From assembly GCA_037441295.1 (NCBI GenBank), contig JBBISK010000002.1, positions 1-33,383 of the forward strand: DNA of 33,383 nt, given 5' to 3'. This DNA comes from Candidatus Aminicenantes bacterium (GTDB taxonomy: Bacteria > Acidobacteriota > Aminicenantia > Aminicenantales > Saccharicenantaceae). Positions 10,195 through 17,215 of the stretch are shown here, piece after piece. A model generated the notes under the pieces. It had not been told where the DNA came from and did no database searches. It saw only the letters and a list, made by a program, of their open reading frames with translations. Numbering within the stretch: position 1 is the stretch's first letter; each line of letters opens with the position of its first letter. Position numbers and translations under genes: made by a program.

Positions 10195-13100
10195 TCAGGC
10201 CGGGGCGCCGTCCTTCGGCTGTTCCGCGGCACGCCTGTTCGCAACCTCCACGGACGTCAGGAGGAGGGGCATGATCACTAGGATGAGCGTCATGCCCACG
10301 GACATGCCCGCGACCACGACGATGGCAAGCGGCCTCTGGATCTGGCTTCCGACACCCCGCGCCAGCGACGCCGGGAGAAGGCCCAGCGCCCCGACGATCC
10401 CACCCATGAGGACCGGGCGGAACTTGTCGCGGGCCGTGAGCAGGACCGCTTCCCGTGAGCCGAGGCCTCGCCGACGCTTCGCGAGATAGTAGGTCACGAG
10501 GATCGAGGAGTTGAGGACGGAAACGCCGATGATGGAGATGAACCCGACCATGGAGGACACACTTAGGGATTCCCGGGCCACGAGGAGGCCCATCAGGCCG
10601 GAGAAGACGGCCAGCAGCGGCGCGACCATGGTGATGACGACGTTCCGGACGGACTGGAAAAGGACATAGAGAACGACGAGGATCAGGACGAACGACAGGG
10701 GCAGGGAGACGAAGAGGCGTTTGAACGACTCCTTCATCTCGCGGAAGACCCCGCTCCATTCCATGAAGTAGCCCCCGGGGAGCTTGATCCGGGAGACCTT
10801 CTCCTGGGCGCGCTTGACCGTTCCGCCCATGTCCTTCGAGGTCACTGTGAACTTGACGGGGATGTAGCGGCGGTAATTCCCGCGGTAGATGAACGAGGCC
10901 CCCGTATCGTAATGCACGCGGGCCACCCGCGACAGGGGGATGACGCCGCCGCCCGGCAGGACAATCGGGCTTGACGCGATCTTCTCGGGTTCCTTGCCGT
11001 AGGAAGTCGGATACCGGACGAGCAGGGAAAAGTTCCTGGCCCCTTCGATAACCCGGCTGATCTCCTTCCCGCCGAGGGCGGCCGAGACCGTGTCCAAGAC
11101 GTCCTCCATGGTCAATCCCATGGCGGCGGCGTTCTCGCGGACGACGTCAATGAGGAGATTGGGCTGTCCCAGCTCCTTGAGGACGCCGACGTCCTCGATC
11201 CCGGGCGTGGCCGCCAGCTTCTCGCTGACGGCGCCTGCGAGGCTCTCGAGGACGCCCAGGTCCTCGCCGAAGATCTTGACGGAATTCTCGCCCTTGACCC
11301 CGGACATCGTTTCGTGGAGCTGGTCCTCGCTGTACTGAGTGATGGTGATGTCGGCGTTGGGGAACATGGCTTTCAGTCCGCCGCGGACCTGCTCCTCGAG
11401 GTCCGCCTTGTGCCGCCCCGCCGGCCACTGCCGGTAGGGCTTGAGGATGAGGCAGTATTCTGTGTTGAAGGGTCCGCTCGGGTCCGTCCCGTCCTCGGGG
11501 CGGCCCGTCTGCGATTCCACCGTCTCGACCTCGGAGAGGCCGGCCAGGTATCTCCTGACCTGGTTGGCGTACTCGTTGCTCTTTTTGAGGGAAATCGTAT
11601 AGGGGAACATGATGCGGATGTAGACGTTGCCCTCGTCCATGACCGGCAGGAACTGGGTGCCGATCGAGCGGAATCCGAGGGCAAGGCCCGCTGCCACGAT
11701 GAGGGCCGCGACGGCGACGGTCCTCCTGCGACGGGCGGCGAGCCAATCCACGAGCCCGACGTACTTTTCCCGGACCGCGGCAAGGACCCTCGTCTCACGG
11801 TCGCGGGCCCGGCCGAGGAACGCAGCCTTGCCGGCGATAAGGTAGGTGAAGGTCAGGGACAGGGTCAGGAGGATCGTATAGAAATAGGTCTTCGCCATCG
11901 GCGAGAAGACCTGCGCCTCCGCGCCCTTCATCAGGAAGATCGGGATGAAAGCCAGGAAAATGATGCCGACTGAAAAGACCATGGGCCGGGCGACCTCTTC
12001 GGTCGCGGCCTGGACGGAGGCGGCCCCCGGCCCCCGCGTCTTCGAGATCCGGAAATAATCTTCGATGAGGATCAGGGGGATGTCGACGATGATTCCGAAG
12101 TCGATGGCGCCGATGGACAGGAGGTTGGCGGATTCCCCTCGGAGCGCCATCAGGGCCAGGGTGATGGCCAGGGACACGGGGATGACGAGGGCGGTGATGA
12201 CCGCGGCCCGGGCGTTGCCCAGGAAGAAGAGGAGGGCCACGGCGACGAGGAAGATCCCGCCCGCCGCCGTTTCGATGACCTTCCGGACGACGGTGTTGAT
12301 CAGGTCCCAACGCTCGTAGAACGGGATGACCTTGATCCCGGCCGGCAGGATCCGGGTGTTGAGCTCCGCCATCTTCTCGTGGAGGGACCGGATCGAGGGG
12401 ATGCTCTTGGCGTCCTTCTTCAGCAGCACGATGCCCATGACGACGTCGTCCTCCGCGCCGAGGCCGACGATCCCGGTCCGCGGGATGTTGGCGATGTTCA
12501 CCTCTCCGACGTTCCGGACAAGAATCGCCTGGCCGTTCCGGGAGGCGACGAGGGTGTTCTCGACGTCCTCGACGCTCCGGATCAGCCCCAAGCCCCGGAC
12601 CATGTAATACTGGTCCCCCATCTCGACGACGCGGCCGCCGACGTTCAGGTTGGACTTTTCCATGGAGTCGATGACCTGGGACAGGGAGATGTCGTACTTG
12701 ATCAGGTTCTCGGGGCGGACGGTGACGACGTAGGCCTTGATGTATCCCCCCCAGCTGCCCACGTCCTCGACGCCGCTGGCCGTCTTGAGATGGCGGGCCA
12801 CGGTCCAGTCCTCGAGCGTCCGCAGCTCCATGAGGTTGTTCGACCCCTCGACGCGGTACCGCATGACCTCCCCGACCATGCTGGGGATGATGTCCGGCCG
12901 GGCGTTCTCGGGCAGACTGACGCCGGAGATCCTGTTGATGACCTGCTGCTTGGCGTCCTTGTAGCTCGTGCCGTAGGTGAAGTTGCACTTGATGTCGGAG
13001 AGCCCGTAGAGCGAGATGGAATTGACCCCGCTCTGTTCCTGCATTCCGGCCAGGGTGATCTCCAGAGGGACGGTGATCTGCCGCTCGACCTCCTCCGCGG

Positions 13101-13266
13101 ACTTGCCCTCGTAGATCGTGACGACCTCGACGATGGCCGGCGAGGGATCGGGGAAGGCCTCGACGTTCAGGTCCTTAACGAAGAAGAACGACAGGGCGAA
13201 CAGGGCGGTGGCGAACAGCAGGAAGAGGGCCTTGTGCGTCAGGACGAACGCGACCCAACGTTTCAT
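10195..13266 (-). CDS. czcA: Heavy-metal efflux RND permease, CzcA/CusA family
   Basis: True start ATG at 13266 (MKRWVAF; overlaps the czcB stop); 1023 aa; VEAFPD, SAEEVERQIT, ANLLSIGAIDFGIIVD, GRPEDGTDP, RPVLM and QRPLAIVV motifs. Confidence 0.9.
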   Translation of the reverse strand: MKRWVAFVLTHKALFLLFATALFALSFFFVKDLNVEAFPDPSPAIVEVVTIYEGKSAEEVERQITVPLEITLAGMQEQSGVNSISLYGLSDIKCNFTYGTSYKDAKQQVINRISGVSLPENARPDIIPSMVGEVMRYRVEGSNNLMELRTLEDWTVARHLKTASGVEDVGSWGGYIKAYVVTVRPENLIKYDISLSQVIDSMEKSNLNVGGRVVEMGDQYYMVRGLGLIRSVEDVENTLVASRNGQAILVRNVGEVNIANIPRTGIVGLGAEDDVVMGIVLLKKDAKSIPSIRSLHEKMAELNTRILPAGIKVIPFYERWDLINTVVRKVIETAAGGIFLVAVALLFFLGNARAAVITALVIPVSLAITLALMALRGESANLLSIGAIDFGIIVDIPLILIEDYFRISKTRGPGAASVQAATEEVARPMVFSVGIIFLAFIPIFLMKGAEAQVFSPMAKTYFYTILLTLSLTFTYLIAGKAAFLGRARDRETRVLAAVREKYVGLVDWLAARRRRTVAVAALIVAAGLALGFRSIGTQFLPVMDEGNVYIRIMFPYTISLKKSNEYANQVRRYLAGLSEVETVESQTGRPEDGTDPSGPFNTEYCLILKPYRQWPAGRHKADLEEQVRGGLKAMFPNADITITQYSEDQLHETMSGVKGENSVKIFGEDLGVLESLAGAVSEKLAATPGIEDVGVLKELGQPNLLIDVVRENAAAMGLTMEDVLDTVSAALGGKEISRVIEGARNFSLLVRYPTSYGKEPEKIASSPIVLPGGGVIPLSRVARVHYDTGASFIYRGNYRRYIPVKFTVTSKDMGGTVKRAQEKVSRIKLPGGYFMEWSGVFREMKESFKRLFVSLPLSFVLILVVLYVLFQSVRNVVITMVAPLLAVFSGLMGLLVARESLSVSSMVGFISIIGVSVLNSSILVTYYLAKRRRGLGSREAVLLTARDKFRPVLMGGIVGALGLLPASLARGVGSQIQRPLAIVVVAGMSVGMTLILVIMPLLLTSVEVANRRAAEQPKDGAPA

Positions 13267-14327
13267 CAGGATTTCTCCAGGTCGATGGCGGACGTGGCGA
13301 TCTCCTCCCCCTCCCGGAGCCCGGCCACGGCCACCTCGGTCTCGGAGACTTCGTGGAGCAGGCTTACCGCCTGACGCTCGAAGACGCCGTTCCGGCGGAC
13401 GAAGACGGAGAACTGGCCGTCTTTGTAGAGCAGGCACGCCTTGGGCACGACGGGCATCATCCGCTCCGATTCGAGGATCTTGATCTTCAGGAACATGTTC
13501 TGCTTGAAGATGTCCTGGCGGCGCGAGGGACGGATGAAGGTCTTGATCGTCCTGGCATCTGGGTCCTCCGCCCCGCTGACGTAACTGACACGCCCCTCGA
13601 ACGCGACGCCGGGGGCCACGTCGGTCGTGAACGTGACGTCCTGTCCGGTCCGGATCCTCCCGCTGTCGGTGTCGTAGAGGTTGGCCACGATGACGACCCT
13701 GTCCGGGCACAGGACGTAGGCCACGGAGGCCGAGGCTTGGAGGCGGTCCCCGATATGGGCCGAGATGTCCGCCGCGCAGCCGTCGATGGGGGACCGGAGG
13801 ACCATCTCGTCGGTGAAGCCGTCCGACGGGGCGACGCCGTAGAGCTCGAGCCTGCGCCTCCATCCTTCGGCCGAGGCCTTGAGCTGCTCGTAGGACGCCT
13901 CGCTCGCCAGAAGGTCGTTCCTGGTAACGGCGCCGACATCGATGAGCTTCTCATTGAGCCGGTAGATCCGCTCGGCCTGCAGCATTTGGGCCGTCGTCGA
14001 GAGGCAACTCGCGTACGCGTCGCTGATCTCGGGGCTGCGGACCGTCATCAGCGCCTGGCCCTTGCGGACCGGGTCGCCGATCCTGACCAGGATCCGGCTC
14101 ACGGCACCGGCCACGGGCGCGAGGATCTTCGCGCCGCCGTCGAGGTCCGCCTGGACGGCGCCCGTCGCCTCGATATAGACCGGGACTTTCCGCGAAACGA
14201 CCCTGGCGACCGGGATGGCCTTTTCCCGGGCCGCGGCGGGGTCGTTCGGGGCGGCCCCGCTCCTGGAGCAGGCCGCCGCCCAAAGGACAACGAGGCCCAA
14301 GGCCCCGACCCTGAACTTTTCTTTCAT
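13266..14327 (-). CDS. czcB: RND efflux periplasmic adaptor (MFP), CzcB-like
   Basis: Likely start ATG at 14327 after GGGAGGGA (overlaps the czcC stop); lipobox-like WAAAC; APVAG..GDPVRKGQ and LRSPIDG lipoyl motifs; GLREGEEI. Confidence 0.85.
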   Translation of the reverse strand: MKEKFRVGALGLVVLWAAACSRSGAAPNDPAAAREKAIPVARVVSRKVPVYIEATGAVQADLDGGAKILAPVAGAVSRILVRIGDPVRKGQALMTVRSPEISDAYASCLSTTAQMLQAERIYRLNEKLIDVGAVTRNDLLASEASYEQLKASAEGWRRRLELYGVAPSDGFTDEMVLRSPIDGCAADISAHIGDRLQASASVAYVLCPDRVVIVANLYDTDSGRIRTGQDVTFTTDVAPGVAFEGRVSYVSGAEDPDARTIKTFIRPSRRQDIFKQNMFLKIKILESERMMPVVPKACLLYKDGQFSVFVRRNGVFERQAVSLLHEVSETEVAVAGLREGEEIATSAIDLEKS

Positions 14328-15562
14328 GGGATCCCTCCCGTATAGACTTTCAGAAGCTCCTGGTCCAGCCGGCACTGGACGAGGGCCTGGTGGTACTTGA
14401 GCATGAAATCCCGGTAGGTCCTCTCCGTGTCCATGAGGTCGAGGACGGTGATGCCCCCCATGGCAAAGGCCTGTCGGCTTTTTTCTAGGAGATCGTTCAG
14501 CTCTCGCTCCCTCGTCCGGTAGGAATCGAAGACCTTGAAGGCCGACCGGTAGTTGTTGAGCCCCTGGCGGACATCGGCGTCGATCTGCCGCCGCGTCTTC
14601 TCGACCTGGGCCTGGAGCTGGCCGAGCTGGGACTTCGAGATTAGGATGTCCTTTTGGTTCCGGTTGAAGACGGGCAGGTCCAGGCCGACGCCGACGCCGA
14701 ACGCGGGGTCGTGACCGGGCCCGAGGGAATCGTACTCGACCCCGACGGTGAGGTCGGGGATGGCGCCGGCCTTGGCCAGCCGGACGGCGCTCCGGGCCGC
14801 GTCGACCTGTTTTGCCAGGGCCAGGAGGTCGTAGCGGTTCTGGTTCGCGGCCCGGAGGAGCGTCTCCGCGTCATAGTCGACGAAGTCCGGCCTCAGGGGC
14901 GGCTCGAACGGCATGAGCGGCTCGGAACTCCCCAGGAGGACCTGGAAAAGCTCCAGGTCGTTCGCGGACTGGTTCTCCAGGCGCGCCAGCTCGTTCTCGA
15001 GCTCGACCCGTGAAAGCCTCAGCTTCTCGTGCTCGATCAGGGTCAGGAATCCCGCAGCGTACCGCCTGTCGGAAACGGCCAGGACCTTGTCGAGGTTCCC
15101 GACCTCCTCGCGGACGAAGCCGACGTTCAGGTCGTCGAGGACGAGGTCGTTGAAGAGCGAATAGAAGCCGACCAGGAGATTGCGGATGACCTCCTGGTGC
15201 CCGAGGCGGGAGGCTTCGAGGTTCGAAGCGGCCAGACCTTTCCGGAGCCCGCGCTTGCCCCCGATCTCGATGAGCTGGTCCAGCCGGGCCGTCCACTGAG
15301 TGTTGTCGCCGATAAAGACCCCGCCCCGGCCGAACTGGATGTCCGTGTAGTCGAAGGACAGGCTCGGGTTCGGCAGCAGCCGGGCCCCCACGGCTTCGGC
15401 GGTCGCCTTGTCGAGCTCGTACCTGTGAATGATGATGTCGATATTGTTTCGATAGAAGAGCTCAAGAGCCCGGTCCAGGGTGATCTCTCGGGCCCCGGCC
15501 AGGGCGGTCGCCGCCAGGAGCGGGACCATCAGGAACGCGGAGAACTTCCTCAATCGCGCCAT
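14324..15562 (-). CDS. czcC: TolC-family outer membrane efflux protein, CzcC-like
   Basis: ATG at 15562 after GGAGG; signal peptide; ARLLPNPSL, IEIGGKRGLR, PDLTVG and LPVFNRNQ motifs. Confidence 0.88.
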   Translation of the reverse strand: MARLRKFSAFLMVPLLAATALAGAREITLDRALELFYRNNIDIIIHRYELDKATAEAVGARLLPNPSLSFDYTDIQFGRGGVFIGDNTQWTARLDQLIEIGGKRGLRKGLAASNLEASRLGHQEVIRNLLVGFYSLFNDLVLDDLNVGFVREEVGNLDKVLAVSDRRYAAGFLTLIEHEKLRLSRVELENELARLENQSANDLELFQVLLGSSEPLMPFEPPLRPDFVDYDAETLLRAANQNRYDLLALAKQVDAARSAVRLAKAGAIPDLTVGVEYDSLGPGHDPAFGVGVGLDLPVFNRNQKDILISKSQLGQLQAQVEKTRRQIDADVRQGLNNYRSAFKVFDSYRTRERELNDLLEKSRQAFAMGGITVLDLMDTERTYRDFMLKYHQALVQCRLDQELLKVYTGGIP

Positions 15563-15640
15563 GCCTAACCTCCGTCTCCATGCGCCTGCGCGCACACCCA
15601 TAGTGACAAGGGAGCCGACGGGACGACGAAGAGGTCAGGC
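15563..15640 (-). promoter_or_regulatory. Stem sequestering the czcC Shine-Dalgarno
   Basis: GCCUGACCUC (15640-15631) pairs with GAGGUUAGGC (15572-15563): 10 bp with 1 G-U; extended after a 2-nt bulge by CGUC/GACG (15628-15625 with 15576-15573). Confidence 0.7.
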
Positions 15641-15913
15641 CGAGGGGGGGGACCTCGAGGAAAGGCGGGGAATGAAGGGGAAATCGAAGTCCGGGACCCG
15701 GCACGGCTTCCGGGAGAGCAGGACAACGAAGAGCGGCAGGAAGAGGACTGCGGCGATGATCGAGCCGAGGACGGATTGCTGGAGTTGGCAGGCGGGGCAC
15801 CGGACGTCCCCCGCGGGGCCCTTCTCGATGTGGGTGAAGTTGACCAGGGCGACGACGGCGAAAAAGAGAATGACGAACGTCAGTCGAAGGGTCCGGAGCG
15901 AGCGTTGGTTCAT
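15635..15913 (-). CDS. DUF2946/CutF/CruR-like leader peptide (92 aa)
   Basis: ATG at 15913; basic N-terminus, TM/signal helix, H-x10-CPAC, C-terminal SSRSPPSA; immediately upstream of metal efflux genes. Confidence 0.75.
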   Translation of the reverse strand: MNQRSLRTLRLTFVILFFAVVALVNFTHIEKGPAGDVRCPACQLQQSVLGSIIAAVLFLPLFVVLLSRKPCRVPDFDFPFIPRLSSRSPPSA

Positions 15914-15925
15914 GGCTTTGTCGCG

Positions 15926-15934
15926 ATTATAGCA
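15926..15934 (-). promoter_or_regulatory. Extended -10 promoter of leader-czcCBA operon
   Basis: TGCTATAAT, with the -10 hexamer ending 12 nt before the leader ATG. Confidence 0.7.
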
Positions 15935-16000
15935 CAACGCGGCCGCCAGATGATACCGCCGCAACGGACGGCCGCGCGACGCCCACCGGGCCGGGCAGCC

Positions 16001-17158
16001 TTAGCGATAATCCTCGCCCTCGCCCAGGACGGCGTGGACCCTGGGCATCCATTCGCTGATGCGGATCTCCTGCGGGCACTTCGGCTCGCACTCGCCGCAC
16101 TGGACGCAGGCGGAGGCGCGCTCGCCTTCGGCGACGAACCGGGCGTAGAGCAGGCGGCTCGTCGCCGGGTCCTCGTGGATGCGGCCGTTGTTGTAGAGCT
16201 CGAAGACGCGCGGGATGGCGACGCCGTTCGGACAGGGCAGGCAGTAGCCGCACTGGGTGCATGGGATGGGCGTCGTGGCGAGGTAGGCCCGGCGGACGCG
16301 GGCGATGAGCTCGTGCTCGGCGGGCCCCATGGACCCGGCTGCGGCCCCTTCGGCGGCGCGCAGGTTCGCCTCGACCTCGCTCATCCGGCCCATGCCGCTC
16401 AGGACGACGGCGACCTCCGGCCGGTCCCAGACCCAGCGCAGGGCCCATTCGGCCGGCGTCCGGTTCGGTTCGAAGGCGTCGAAGAGCTCCCGGACGGCGC
16501 GGGGCGGCCGGGCCAGCCGGCCCCCGAAAAGGGGTTCCATGACGACGACGGCCAGGCCTCTCGCCGCAGCGTACTTCACGCCCTCGGTCCCGGCCTGGTT
16601 CTCGGTGTCCATGTAGTTGTACTGGACCTGGCAGAACGTCCAGCCGCCGTAGCCGTCGACGATCGCCTTGAACACGTCGAACTTGTCGTGGAAGGAGAAG
16701 CCCAGGGCGCCGACGCGGCCGTCCCTGATCGCGGCCTCGGCCCGGGCGAGGACGCCCAGGTCGAGGACCGAGCGCCATCTCTCGGCGTTCAGGGCGTGGA
16801 GGAGGTACAGCTCGACCCGGTCCGTGCCGAGCCGCTTCAGCTGCTGGTCGAGATAGACGTCGAAATCACCGGCCTGCTTGAGGAGCCAGACGGGGGATTT
16901 CGTGGCCAGGCGGACCTTAGCCCGGTAGCCATCCCCGAGGGCCTCGCCGACGACGGCCTCGCTCGCGCCGTTGTGGTAGGGATAGGCCGTATCGACGTAA
17001 TTGACGCCGCGGTCGATCGCCGTCCGGATCATCCGTACGGTCGCCTGCCGGTCCACCTTATCGCTCTGCGGCATCCCGTCGAGCGTCGGCAGCCGCATGC
17101 AGCCGAAGCCGAGGACGGAAGCGCGCCAGTCGAGCCGGCCGAATTTCCGATAGACCAT
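16001..17158 (-). CDS. Aldo/keto reductase with C-terminal 4Fe-4S dicluster
   Basis: ATG at 17158 after AGGAGG; LGFGCMRLP, YVDTAYPY, LATK and GFSFH motifs; CTQCGYCLPCP and CVQCGECEPKCP. Confidence 0.93.
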   Translation of the reverse strand: MVYRKFGRLDWRASVLGFGCMRLPTLDGMPQSDKVDRQATVRMIRTAIDRGVNYVDTAYPYHNGASEAVVGEALGDGYRAKVRLATKSPVWLLKQAGDFDVYLDQQLKRLGTDRVELYLLHALNAERWRSVLDLGVLARAEAAIRDGRVGALGFSFHDKFDVFKAIVDGYGGWTFCQVQYNYMDTENQAGTEGVKYAAARGLAVVVMEPLFGGRLARPPRAVRELFDAFEPNRTPAEWALRWVWDRPEVAVVLSGMGRMSEVEANLRAAEGAAAGSMGPAEHELIARVRRAYLATTPIPCTQCGYCLPCPNGVAIPRVFELYNNGRIHEDPATSRLLYARFVAEGERASACVQCGECEPKCPQEIRISEWMPRVHAVLGEGEDYR

Positions 17159-17215
17159 GCGTCGACCTCCTCGCTCCATTATACAGGAGGGCGTTCAAAG
17201 CGGGCCCGCCGCGGC

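Follow-up and report, generated by a model that had tools for sequence, protein, structure and literature searches.

How is a heavy-metal efflux operon controlled when no regulator gene is visible beside it? The question is raised by a contig of an uncultured Candidatus Aminicenantes bacterium (JBBISK010000002.1, assembly GCA_037441295.1), the first 33,383 nucleotides of which form the stretch analysed here, 'the window'. On its reverse strand, a small ORF (P0001, the leader) precedes genes for an outer-membrane efflux protein, a periplasmic adaptor and an RND permease (Table 1). A first-pass annotation of the sequence took this ORF for a metal-sensing leader peptide. It now seems fairly probable, from its sequence and by analogy with known systems, that the leader is a translated regulatory peptide that senses metal and arrests its own ribosome, that it belongs to a remote and unannotated branch of the CutF/CruR (DUF2946-like) peptides, and that it gates the pump operon.

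The leader ORF and its family

The leader runs from an ATG at 15913-15911 to a TGA at 15637-15635, and its translation agrees in every element with the architecture first proposed for it: a signal or transmembrane helix, a histidine separated by ten residues from CPAC (15799-15788), a second hydrophobic stretch, and RSPP followed by two residues. The order is membrane helix, H28-x-E30 (H28 codon, 15832-15830; 10 residues separate H28 from C39), C39-P-A-C42, 45 residues, R87-S-P-P90, S-A and the stop. The distance from C42 to R87, first put at about 45 residues, is exactly 45. The best 19-residue Kyte-Doolittle means of the peptide are 2.2 in the first helix and 2.9 in the second. AlphaFold2, run on the family alignment, predicts helices at residues 3-27 and 40-67 (mean pLDDT 83); the two form a confidently predicted hairpin, with the ligand loop joining them and the CxxC where a helix begins.

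Table 1. Coordinates of the leader, its parts and its neighbours in the window
Feature	Position	Strand	Basis
Promoter-like extended -10 box, TG-n-TATAAT	15926..15934	-	Sequence; ends 12 nt before ATG
Leader ORF P0001, 92 codons + stop	15635..15913	-	Translation, homology, conservation
N-terminal membrane anchor, about residues 9-27, basic residues ahead	15833..15889	-	Hydropathy; AlphaFold2 helix 3-27
Candidate ligand loop, H28-x-E30-x8-C39-P-A-C42 (CPAC, 15799-15788)	15788..15832	-	Conservation
Second hydrophobic helix, about residues 47-67	15713..15775	-	AlphaFold2 and hydropathy; strong here, unconserved in family
R87-S-P-P90, predicted arrest motif	15644..15655	-	Conservation; stall position by analogy with RAPP
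Putative anti-Shine-Dalgarno arm: last sense codon, stop and 4 following bases	15631..15640	-	Minimum-free-energy fold; pairs with 15572-15563
Shine-Dalgarno GGAGG and spacer of efflux-protein gene, helix 3' arm	15563..15573	-	Sequence, fold
Outer-membrane efflux protein, TolC/CzcC-like	14324..15562	-	PF02321, E 4e-46; likely start 15562 chosen by Shine-Dalgarno
Periplasmic adaptor (membrane-fusion protein)	13266..14327	-	HlyD_D23, E 8e-25; TIGR01730, 118 bits
RND permease, heavy-metal type	10195..13266	-	ACR_tran, E 1e-199

DNA of 68% G+C yields many long spurious frames, and the leader could on that ground be a chance ORF with coincidental motifs. The comparative data argue strongly against this. 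The window's own genome contains 19,210 stop-to-stop frames of at least 60 amino acids. Of these, 11 close with R[SAGD]PP and two further residues, and only the leader ORF among the 11 also has a CxxC 44-48 residues upstream of that ending. A phmmer search of 1.84 billion representatives found 33 clusters (50% identity) at E<=1e-3, 29 of them of 87-101 amino acids, and a profile search with the family extended this to 222 clusters at 90% identity. The named organisms carrying relatives are Candidatus Aminicenantes and other Acidobacteriota. No Pfam domain is present on the 120 listed of the 222 clusters, and Pfam and NCBIfam scans of the leader peptide itself assigned no family.

Length and motifs are kept among relatives down to about 30% identity. 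In an alignment of 36 sequences with a mean column identity of 29%, H28, C39, C42, P89 and P90 are invariant, and F26, E30, P40, A41 and R87 are at least 90% conserved. Among 149 family proteins, CPAC is found in 144, an H-to-C distance of 11 in 135, a Cys-to-Arg distance of 45 in 146, a tail of two residues after R-x-P-P in 140 and a length of 92 in 100. The arrest motif is RSPP in 128 of these proteins, RAPP in 15, RGPP in 5 and KSPP in 1; one sub-group has Gly in place of the second Cys and H-N-H in place of H-T-E. Nucleotide differences between close family pairs fall mostly at third codon positions (17, 13 and 36 at positions 1, 2 and 3 for loci L001 and L002). With hundreds of homologues of fixed length and motifs, third-position variation and no other such frame in the genome, the chance reading is rejected as vanishingly improbable, and sequence conservation confirms the leader ORF as a genuine gene.

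The two helices differ in their conservation. An N-terminal anchor (best 19-residue hydropathy at least 1.6) is present in 148 of the 149 proteins, whereas the second helix is membrane-like at the same threshold in only 27. The earlier suggestion that this extra hydrophobic segment acts as a pulling-force element therefore does not describe a family feature, and as a general proposal it is rejected.

Relation to CruR and DUF2946

The likeness to DUF2946 proposed in the first-pass annotation survives in part. The HMM search recommended there does not detect the leader: PF11162 gives no match to P0001 at E<=1, its gathering score of 23.7 bits not being reached, and the same model gives only weak matches in 9 of 36 relatives (best E 0.0085). 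A six-frame search of the window's own genome with PF11162 gave no match at E<=10. Four of 301 genomes of the phylum have matches, and there is none in the same-class genomes among those listed, though eight of these carry the leader family. Profile-profile comparison, however, brings the two families together. With hhalign, the leader family matches 4 DUF2946 proteins of other Acidobacteriota at 91.5% (E 8.8e-7) and 26 such proteins at 92.7% (E 4.2e-7), a score to which the short motifs contribute much. The match is ungapped over 58-62 columns, from just ahead of the CxxC to the C terminus, and so concerns the C-terminal module only. Both motifs are present in 118 of 120 DUF2946 proteins of other Acidobacteriota, with a Cys-to-Arg spacing of 44 (26 proteins) or 45 (92 proteins). 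Thus the profile match, the spacing and the positions of the motifs uphold a DUF2946-like leader, and detection by PF11162 at E<=1 does not. Apart from unnamed Acidobacteriota clusters, a protein atlas returned a single cluster, at rank 24 (score 0.91), with DUF2946 on 54% of its members, a lead only.

Published systems are compared here as they appear in excerpts of the sources cited. In CruR (Bp2923 of Bordetella pertussis; Roy et al., mBio 2022, PMC9426467), the CXXC and RAPP motifs are both required, the spacing between them matters (46 by the quoted residue numbers, against 45 in the leader), and the stall keeps the downstream genes on. Like the leader, CruR has an N-terminal export signal or anchor, stands first in a metal operon and has its R-x-P-P close to the stop codon, only a few residues away; genes for TonB-dependent receptors often follow in both families. 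The differences are considerable. RAPP, given in PMC9426467 as the conserved C-terminal motif of DUF2946, is replaced in the leader by RSPP at the right place, with the CXXC and the spacing of DUF2946 kept. CruR and DUF2946 proteins have RAPP or RGPP, a tail of three or more residues and a length of 120-145 amino acids; the leader has a two-residue tail and, at 92 amino acids, lacks the long His-rich N-terminal part. RSPP occurs in none of the 118 DUF2946 proteins of the neighbouring clades, against 128 of the 149 leader-family proteins. Further, Rho mediates the action of CruR, whose stall is relieved by copper (PMC9426467); an exporter would call for the opposite response.

CutF and other arrest peptides

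CutF of Rhodobacter capsulatus (Ozturk et al., mBio 2023, PMC9973294) is likewise a small leader peptide, exported or membrane-anchored, that combines a Cys motif with a proline stall motif at its C terminus and opens a metal operon. The intergenic gap to the next gene is short in both; in CutF it folds over the next Shine-Dalgarno, and a similar shielding may occur in the leader family. Copper-induced stalling is reported to melt a stem-loop over that ribosome-binding site, with disulfide formation as part of the switch in the model (bioRxiv 10.1101/2025.02.05.636593). The commonest downstream neighbours of CutF-like proteins are RND outer-membrane efflux proteins, followed by TonB-like proteins (PMC9973294), and efflux-protein and TonB-dependent-receptor contexts both occur in the leader family. 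By the filters used in that study the leader would itself be taken for CutF-like: it has 92 amino acids (below 150), a PP two residues from its end (within the last 15), a hydrophobic N-terminal helix and a same-strand gene 72 nt downstream (limit, 1000 nt). CutF differs in having CxxxC, a PPP motif, a cleavable signal peptide and EF-P dependence, in place of the H-x-E-x8-CPAC, RSPP, apparently uncleaved anchor, fixed 92 amino acids and near-leaderless start of the leader family. CutF-like peptides before RND operons are thus already published, and the leader family adds the RSPP variant; the main text of PMC9973294 does not mention Acidobacteria.

CzcI of Cupriavidus metallidurans, compared here by description only, is likewise a small gene directly before a pump operon, czcCBA, and has been suggested to be a metal-sensing regulator; it is grouped with the CutF-like proteins although, as described in PMC9973294, it has no C-terminal proline motif.

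The C-terminal R-x-P-P near the stop, the small membrane or secretory leader ORF and an expected stall with Pro codons in the P and A sites are shared with ApdA, ApdP, ApcA and SecM (Sakiyama 2021, Fujiwara 2024 and Morici 2024, through citing papers; PMC12992588). These peptides instead monitor Sec or YidC and precede protein-localisation genes, and no Cys/His ligand motif is part of their description. The 2025 survey, as excerpted, covered RAPP and RGPP proteins and not RSPP. RSPP was 'partially permissive' for arrest when introduced into ApdA/ApdP and has been recovered from random stalling screens (PMC12992588). A literature search for an RSPP-type metal leader ORF surfaced only the work on CruR, on CutF and CutF-like proteins, and on RAPP/RGPP peptides. 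Taken by sequence, then, the leader family is an unannotated one, distantly related to the copper-sensing CruR and CutF peptides.

Promoter and RNA structure

The layout of the window shows the leader ORF to be the first cistron behind a promoter-like site of its own. Its 5' region would be very short because the -10 box lies so close to the ATG, and no Shine-Dalgarno is present between the two. A custom promoter score is 8 of 12 here, with a weak -35; 34 of 58 family loci but only 1 of 53 controls reach at least 9 of 12, with the -10 ending 2-16 nt ahead of the start. Since a stricter scan of 15400-16200 gave no promoter-like and no terminator-like site, the promoter call in the window comes only from the extended -10 box and the looser family scoring.

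At the other end of the leader, pairing of the downstream Shine-Dalgarno tends to fall close to the predicted stall site. In the window, 57% of its pairing probability lies at +17..+30 from the predicted stalled P site. At 33 of 48 family loci the interval of -12..+30 nt around the predicted P site takes up at least half of this probability; among control gene pairs of the same genome, 2 of 27 show this. The loci in this comparison are relatives, and so non-independent samples, and the controls come from one genome with crude gene calls. At 15 of the 48 loci the Shine-Dalgarno does not find its main pairing near the stall site. Opening the Shine-Dalgarno costs 7.2-7.7 kcal/mol on average when the ribosome stands 30-120 nt upstream, and about 2 kcal/mol less (5.3) once it is at the stall site. 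In the window, the cost is 3.6 kcal/mol for the free RNA and 5.2 with a -12..+16 footprint at the stall; only when the P site has advanced another 6 nt does it fall to 0.5.

The window's leader-end and intergenic region folds no better than its shuffles (z -0.66). RNAalifold, applied to 29 aligned regions that extend from the arrest motif to the next gene start, predicts no consensus pairs and so gives no covariation support; the position of the anti-Shine-Dalgarno varies by locus, over the Pro-Pro codons or just 3' of the stop. The first Pro codon of the motif is CCU in 37 of 61 family members (background 22%), the second is CCG in 3 of 61 (background 30%), and the Ser codon is UCN in 41 of 42. 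Codon choice at the stall site favours an anti-Shine-Dalgarno, and the anti-Shine-Dalgarno-like sequence is partly a by-product of the Pro-Pro codons. The intergenic regions that follow are mostly 55-120 nt long (72 nt in the window) and, without the Shine-Dalgarno, 63% pyrimidine, with C at 0.30 and G at 0.16.

The pump operon and other downstream genes

The downstream genes agree with the first-pass description: Pfam identifies an efflux protein, an adaptor and an RND permease on the same strand. Against TIGR00914 (CusA/CzcA) the permease scores 674.5 bits, just below the cut-off of 701.45, with multidrug models at 389 bits and less; among solved structures it comes nearest to ZneA (587 bits), with CusA at 338 bits. 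The codons at the gene junctions show the three pump genes to be translationally coupled: the adaptor ATG overlaps the efflux-protein stop, and the permease ATG shares one base with the adaptor stop. As first noted, there is no adjacent regulator; none of nine scanned neighbouring ORFs has a regulator domain, and four of the nine are without any Pfam match. The leader may therefore be the main regulator, a suggestion that comes only from the absence of a visible regulator gene nearby.

The same design is found ahead of other genes. Among 61 distinct family ORFs, 56 have a downstream ORF, encoding an outer-membrane efflux protein in 33 cases, a TonB-dependent receptor in 16 and a protein of no family in 7; Pfam scans of six downstream proteins in this last class found no family. 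Leader copies before exporters and before TonB-dependent receptors sometimes occur within one cluster, and where exporter and receptor units share a cluster, each is preceded by a separate copy. Peptides of the two contexts show no difference by eye or in motif and hydropathy tallies.

Proposed mechanism and alternatives

Most likely, the leader would switch the pump on by pausing its own ribosome. By analogy with RAPP toeprints (PMC12992588), the ribosome is predicted to pause when its P and A sites hold Pro89 and Pro90, respectively. Some 30-35 C-terminal residues would then occupy the exit tunnel, the anchor would already be engaged with the membrane, and the His/Glu/Cys/Cys loop would be just clear of the ribosome, close to or at the translocon. 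Stalled there, the ribosome would cover or abut the bases with which the first pump gene's Shine-Dalgarno is otherwise paired; a longer pause would therefore give more initiation there, and the overlapping stop and start codons would pass the increase on to the adaptor and permease genes. The duration of the pause would be set by metal occupancy of the ligand loop. A metal that lengthens the pause would be a sensible logic for an exporter, as reported for CutF. A pump resembling ZneA and a Cys2-His-Glu set of ligands make a divalent ion the better guess for the sensed metal; for Zn, Co, Cd or Ni in particular, the likeness of the pump to ZneA is the only indication. Since the same design also precedes TonB-dependent receptors, 'metal turns the exporter on' would fail as a rule for every member unless the members differ in some further respect.

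The same peptide and the same stall could be read out in transcription, the paused ribosome keeping Rho off a C-rich intergenic loading site and release of the pause leading to termination before the pump genes; this could combine with unmasking of the Shine-Dalgarno. CruR provides the precedent (PMC9426467), and the intergenic regions are pyrimidine-rich, with C at least twice G in 25 of 53 family regions against 1 of 27 control regions. The window's own region, in which C (0.35) and G (0.32) are nearly equal, does not follow this pattern, the regions are short in comparison with the 162 nt of cruR (PMC9426467), and repeated anti-Shine-Dalgarno elements would also give a pyrimidine bias, so that a Rho read-out seems unlikely. 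A slightly lower probability is given to a stable two-helix membrane protein with a metal site, CzcI-like or AcrZ-like, that serves as an accessory subunit of the pump or receptor or as a partner in metal hand-over, with RSPP as a binding or processing motif. The predicted hairpin, with its ligand loop between the helices, would suit such a protein, as would the standing of CzcI, without a proline motif, among the CutF-like proteins (PMC9973294). Conservation, however, is limited to the motifs, the spacer length and the tail length, with the second helix seldom membrane-like, and neither a fixed 45-residue spacer with a two-residue tail nor a synonymous-codon bias at Ser-Pro-Pro with pairing to the next Shine-Dalgarno is expected of a structural subunit; proteomes, moreover, avoid RSPP (PMC12992588).

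An arrest peptide need not sense metal. CPAC could report the periplasmic thiol-disulfide state, or the anchor could report insertion or secretion capacity, for which the SecM, MifM and ApdA/ApdP class is a precedent. A CxxC at a helix start doubles as a redox motif, DsbA and thioredoxin genes are reported behind RAPP/RGPP leader ORFs that carry paired cysteines (PMC12992588), the CutF model includes disulfide formation (bioRxiv 10.1101/2025.02.05.636593), and nearly all genes downstream of the leader family encode exported outer-membrane proteins. Yet the genes conserved beside the family encode a heavy-metal-type RND system or TonB-dependent receptors and are not Sec, YidC or Dsb genes, conservation extends from the cysteines to His28 and Glu30, and the sub-group with Gly for Cys and H-N-H for H-T-E fits a changed ligand set better than a redox pair. 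Sensing of something other than metal is accordingly judged quite improbable, and metal-dependent pausing of the leader's own ribosome remains the preferred reading.

Wider significance

Metal-sensing arrest peptides are a recent class with, to our knowledge, two studied examples, CruR and CutF, both responding to copper and both from Proteobacteria. The leader family would add a compact group that is invisible to annotation ('hypothetical protein', no Pfam domain) in uncultured Aminicenantes and other Acidobacteriota, and would make RSPP, hitherto known only from mutants and random screens, a natural, if predicted, stall motif. The equality of the CxxC-to-arrest distance with that of DUF2946 points to a geometric rule, by which the ligand site lies a fixed length outside the tunnel at stalling. 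In its 92 amino acids the leader offers a minimal model in which sensor, spacer, predicted stall codons and anti-Shine-Dalgarno are all legible in the sequence.

A broader reading, for the present doubtful, is that one peptide design gates both exporter units (efflux protein, adaptor and RND permease) and importer-type units (TonB-dependent receptors), with the anti-Shine-Dalgarno placed within the Ser-Pro-Pro stall codons. If all copies respond alike, the 'Czc-like' pump and the receptors would come on together, and such joint induction, if true, would fit export and recapture of a metal carrier under metal shortage, not detoxification. If the responses are opposite, a few residues of a 92-residue peptide would decide whether metal lengthens or shortens the pause. 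Standing ahead of a ZneA-like exporter as well as of TonB-dependent receptors, the family could show how one design yields opposite responses, and it could also show whether metals besides copper are sensed by arrest peptides. For annotation, pump operons of this kind may be regulated without any protein regulator.

A small gene family ahead of efflux operons

The leader ORF upstream of the pump operon has the layout proposed in the first-pass annotation, and each element listed there lies where it was placed. A basic N terminus leads into a hydrophobic helix and the H28 and CPAC motifs, and a second hydrophobic stretch separates CPAC from the RSPP near the stop codon. The predicted spacing of about 45 residues between CxxC and RSPP also holds, C42 to R87 being 45 residues. 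The window's own genome contains 19,210 frames of 60 aa or longer; R[SAGD]PP followed by two residues closes 11 of them, and the leader ORF is the only one of these with a CxxC at the right distance. The observation is confirmed.

Features of the leader ORF and its surroundings
Feature	Position	Strand	Basis
Leader ORF, 92 codons	15913-15635	-	ATG-to-TGA frame
H28, ten residues, CPAC	CPAC 15799-15788	-	Translation of leader ORF
RSPP, then two residues and stop	15655-15644	-	Translation of leader ORF
TG-n-TATAAT, 12 nt before leader ATG; poor -35 (8/12)	15934-15926	-	
Last sense codon, stop and four bases, complementary to Shine-Dalgarno and spacer of efflux-protein gene	15640-15631 with 15572-15563	-	
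Efflux-protein TGA/adaptor ATG overlap (ATGA)	14324-14327	-	Sequence
Adaptor TGA and permease ATG, one base in common	13264-13268	-	Sequence
Aldo/keto reductase fused to C-terminal 4Fe-4S dicluster domain	16001-17179	-	Pfam

The leader ORF is a gene and belongs to a family. Searches of related genomes returned ORFs of ~90-100 codons with the same layout; phmmer, run on 1.84 billion representative proteins, yielded 33 clusters at E<=1e-3, of which 29 are 87-101 aa long, and a profile search of a set of 5.8 billion proteins found 222 clusters in the 8000 candidates that it scored. Among the matches listed from the profile search, none of 120 family clusters carries a Pfam domain, and all family cluster names given among the matches listed are 'hypothetical protein'. 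Relatives that bear a name come from MAGs with the label Candidatus Aminicenantes, Acidobacteriota or Terriglobales. Of 401 genomes sampled across the phylum, 29 matched the family profile, and these matches cluster in the order and class of the window.

An alignment of 36 sequences, whose columns average 29% identity, has H28, C39, C42, P89 and P90 invariant and F26, E30, P40, A41 and R87 conserved at 90% or more. Across 149 family proteins, CPAC is present in 144, the last Cys lies exactly 45 residues from the Arg in 146, the tail after Pro-Pro is exactly two residues in 140 and the total length is 92 aa in 100; the arrest motif is RSPP in 128, RAPP in 15, RGPP in five and KSPP in one. Close pairs of peptide genes differ mainly at third codon positions (17, 13 and 36 differences at positions 1, 2 and 3 between loci L001 and L002). 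The second helix is membrane-like in just 27 of the 149 and so is not conserved; the pulling-force element suggested for it is therefore not a general one.

In the peptides of three loci (L019, L020 and L058), H-T-E has become H-N-H and CPAC has become CPAG, with loss of the second cysteine. The first peptide of locus L075 (15608-15405) also has CPAG, with H-T-E kept. All four retain the spacer and RSPP and have an efflux-protein gene downstream; the altered ligand set may serve a different metal.

Gene context

On the same strand, the leader ORF is followed by genes for an outer-membrane efflux protein (PF02321), a membrane-fusion adaptor and an RND permease. The permease narrowly misses the CusA/CzcA cut-off (674.5 against 701.45 bits); its score on this model far exceeds that on every multidrug model. 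Of the solved relatives, the zinc pump ZneA comes closest to it (587 bits; CusA, 338 bits). The stop-start overlaps of the pump genes fit an operon whose translation is coupled throughout to the first Shine-Dalgarno. The aldo/keto reductase ORF lies directly upstream of the leader ORF, and a counterpart with 88% identity adjoins the peptide gene in the nearest relative, L002. Nine further neighbouring ORFs comprise five with enzyme or carbohydrate-binding domains and four without a Pfam match; none has a regulator domain, in keeping with the claim that no regulator is adjacent.

After duplicates were dropped by their last 60 residues, 70 loci gave 61 distinct family ORFs, 56 of which are followed on the same strand, no more than about 330 nt away, by an ORF of 100 codons or longer. 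Classed by local HMMs built from 17 Pfam-confirmed downstream proteins, these encode an outer-membrane efflux protein at 33 loci, a TonB-dependent receptor at 16 and neither at seven, six of the latter being long proteins without a Pfam family. Four of the other five family ORFs reach the end of the DNA analysed, and at L054 the next gene, 344 nt downstream, encodes a TonB-dependent receptor. The downstream proteins at L030, L050, L060, L064, L068 and L069 are about 420-456 aa, lack a Pfam match and have a signal-like hydrophobic N terminus in most cases, not all; they could be a further outer-membrane class under the same control. At L003 (G004:C19), a close relative with 62% identity, a 138-aa protein without a Pfam match takes the place of the efflux-protein gene, directly followed by adaptor and RND permease.

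Units can also be strung together. L075 (G105:C8:74000-92000, minus strand) has an exporter unit of peptide, efflux protein, adaptor and RND, then two successive units of peptide and TonB-dependent receptor; L024 has peptide and receptor, then peptide, efflux protein and adaptor. L032 likewise has several sensor-peptide units in a row. Exporter and importer-type receptors thus occur in one locus, each with its own peptide copy, and no sequence feature was found that separates exporter-linked from receptor-linked peptides.

A sigma-70-like promoter (at least 9/12 matches) lies within 60 nt upstream of the peptide start at 34 of 58 loci. At these loci 2-16 nt separate the end of the -10 box from the start codon, with no Shine-Dalgarno between, and promoter scoring of the 60 nt before downstream genes gave one hit in 53. 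A stricter promoter scan at the leader ORF itself found none. This pattern suggests an mRNA with little or no leader on which the peptide gene comes first, the pump genes having no promoter of their own.

RNA from the predicted stall site to the next gene

The helix between the end of the leader ORF and the next Shine-Dalgarno has ten pairs, one of them G-U, and is present in the minimum-free-energy fold, which is no better than shuffles (z -0.66). In the window, opening the Shine-Dalgarno costs 3.6 kcal/mol in free RNA, 5.2 with the ribosome footprint at the stall and 0.5 with it 6 nt further on. Among 48 family loci with a clear Shine-Dalgarno, which are relatives and not independent samples, at least half of its pairing probability falls within -12..+30 nt of the predicted P site (Pro89) at 33 and inside the -12..+16 footprint at 22; 15 do not fit such pairing. 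The corresponding counts are 2/27 and 1/27 for control same-strand gene pairs with intergenic regions of 50-130 nt, taken from the window's genome alone with crude gene calls. Over the 48 loci, opening costs 7.2-7.7 kcal/mol on average when a ribosome sits 30-120 nt upstream, and 5.3 when it sits at the stall site. RNAalifold gave no consensus pairs for the family intergenic regions.

The first Pro codon is CCU in 37 of 61 ORFs against a background of 22% in downstream genes (32 observed, 12.0 expected, in the 55 loci with enough background), the second is CCG in 3 of 61 (background 30%), and the Ser of the motif is UCN in 41 of 42. Codon use at Ser-Pro-Pro favours anti-Shine-Dalgarno sequence, although Pro-Pro codons are by nature anti-Shine-Dalgarno-like.

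The stall could possibly be read out through Rho instead. The family intergenic regions (53 loci) are 63% pyrimidine, with C at 0.30 and G at 0.16, and C reaches twice G or more in 25 of them but in just 1 of 27 control regions; such C-rich, G-poor sequence looks like a site for Rho loading. Each region holds several CCUCC-like elements.

Relation to known stall peptides

An HMM search against DUF2946 had been proposed as a check, and it fails: PF11162 does not match the leader peptide at E<=1, and gives only weak matches in 9 of 36 relatives (best E 0.0085) and none in a six-frame search of the window's own genome. Of 301 genomes from the phylum, 4 contain a match; among the genomes listed, those of the window's class have none, although eight of these same-class genomes carry the leader family. 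The four true DUF2946 ORFs so found, together with 120 relatives retrieved alongside, measure 102-201 aa, mostly 120-140 aa. Both motifs are present in 118 of the 120 relatives, with RAPP in 91, RGPP in 27 and RSPP in none; the tail is mostly at least three residues (two in 6/118) and the last-Cys-to-Arg spacing is 44 (26 proteins) or 45 (92). Profile-profile comparison of the two families gave probabilities of 91.5% and 92.7% (E 8.8e-7, 4.2e-7), ungapped from just before CxxC through the C terminus, whereas the N-terminal parts are unlike. We conclude that the two share a sensor-spacer-arrest module, through either remote homology or a very strict common constraint.

In CruR (Bp2923), CXXC 90-93 and RAPP 139-142 are reported to be both required and their spacing to matter; the stall holds off Rho, keeping downstream genes on, and copper relieves it (PMC9426467). 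In CutF, copper is described as prolonging a stall at a C-terminal proline motif, in the course of co-translational export, and the paused ribosome as melting a stem-loop that covers the ribosome-binding site of the following gene (bioRxiv 10.1101/2025.02.05.636593). Among 2,540 CutF-like proteins surveyed, the downstream genes are reported to encode RND outer-membrane efflux proteins most often, then TonB-like proteins (PMC9973294). RSPP is reported as 'partially permissive' in ApdA/ApdP, as recovered by random stalling screens and as under-represented in proteomes (PMC12992588). The leader family falls within the published CutF/CruR class, as a variant of RSPP type that is new and unannotated; the kind of system itself is not new. 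CutF-like peptides have already been published in front of RND operons, and some family members may be in the supplementary tables of PMC9973294 and PMC9426467. The first-pass interpretation was largely right.

A model for the leader

The anatomy, conservation pattern, context and RNA complementarity are observed; the most likely mechanism behind them is a stall that would expose the next Shine-Dalgarno. The ribosome would pause at Pro89/Pro90 with about 30-35 residues in the tunnel; the anchor would therefore have emerged, and the H-x-E...CPAC loop would lie 13-27 residues past the end of the tunnel, probably at the membrane or translocon, with the second helix of the leader peptide still partly within the tunnel. 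The pause would expose the Shine-Dalgarno of the next gene, and coupling would carry translation along the operon. Its length would be set by metal occupancy of the loop: in exporter units metal is expected to lengthen the pause, as in CutF, and in receptor units the opposite response is expected, as in CruR. That the metal is divalent is suggested only by the likeness of the pump to ZneA and by a ligand set of Cys2-His-Glu. The value of the family lies in a minimal, highly regular design with a shared 45-residue rule, whose stall codons may double as anti-Shine-Dalgarno and which is in use before exporters and receptors alike.
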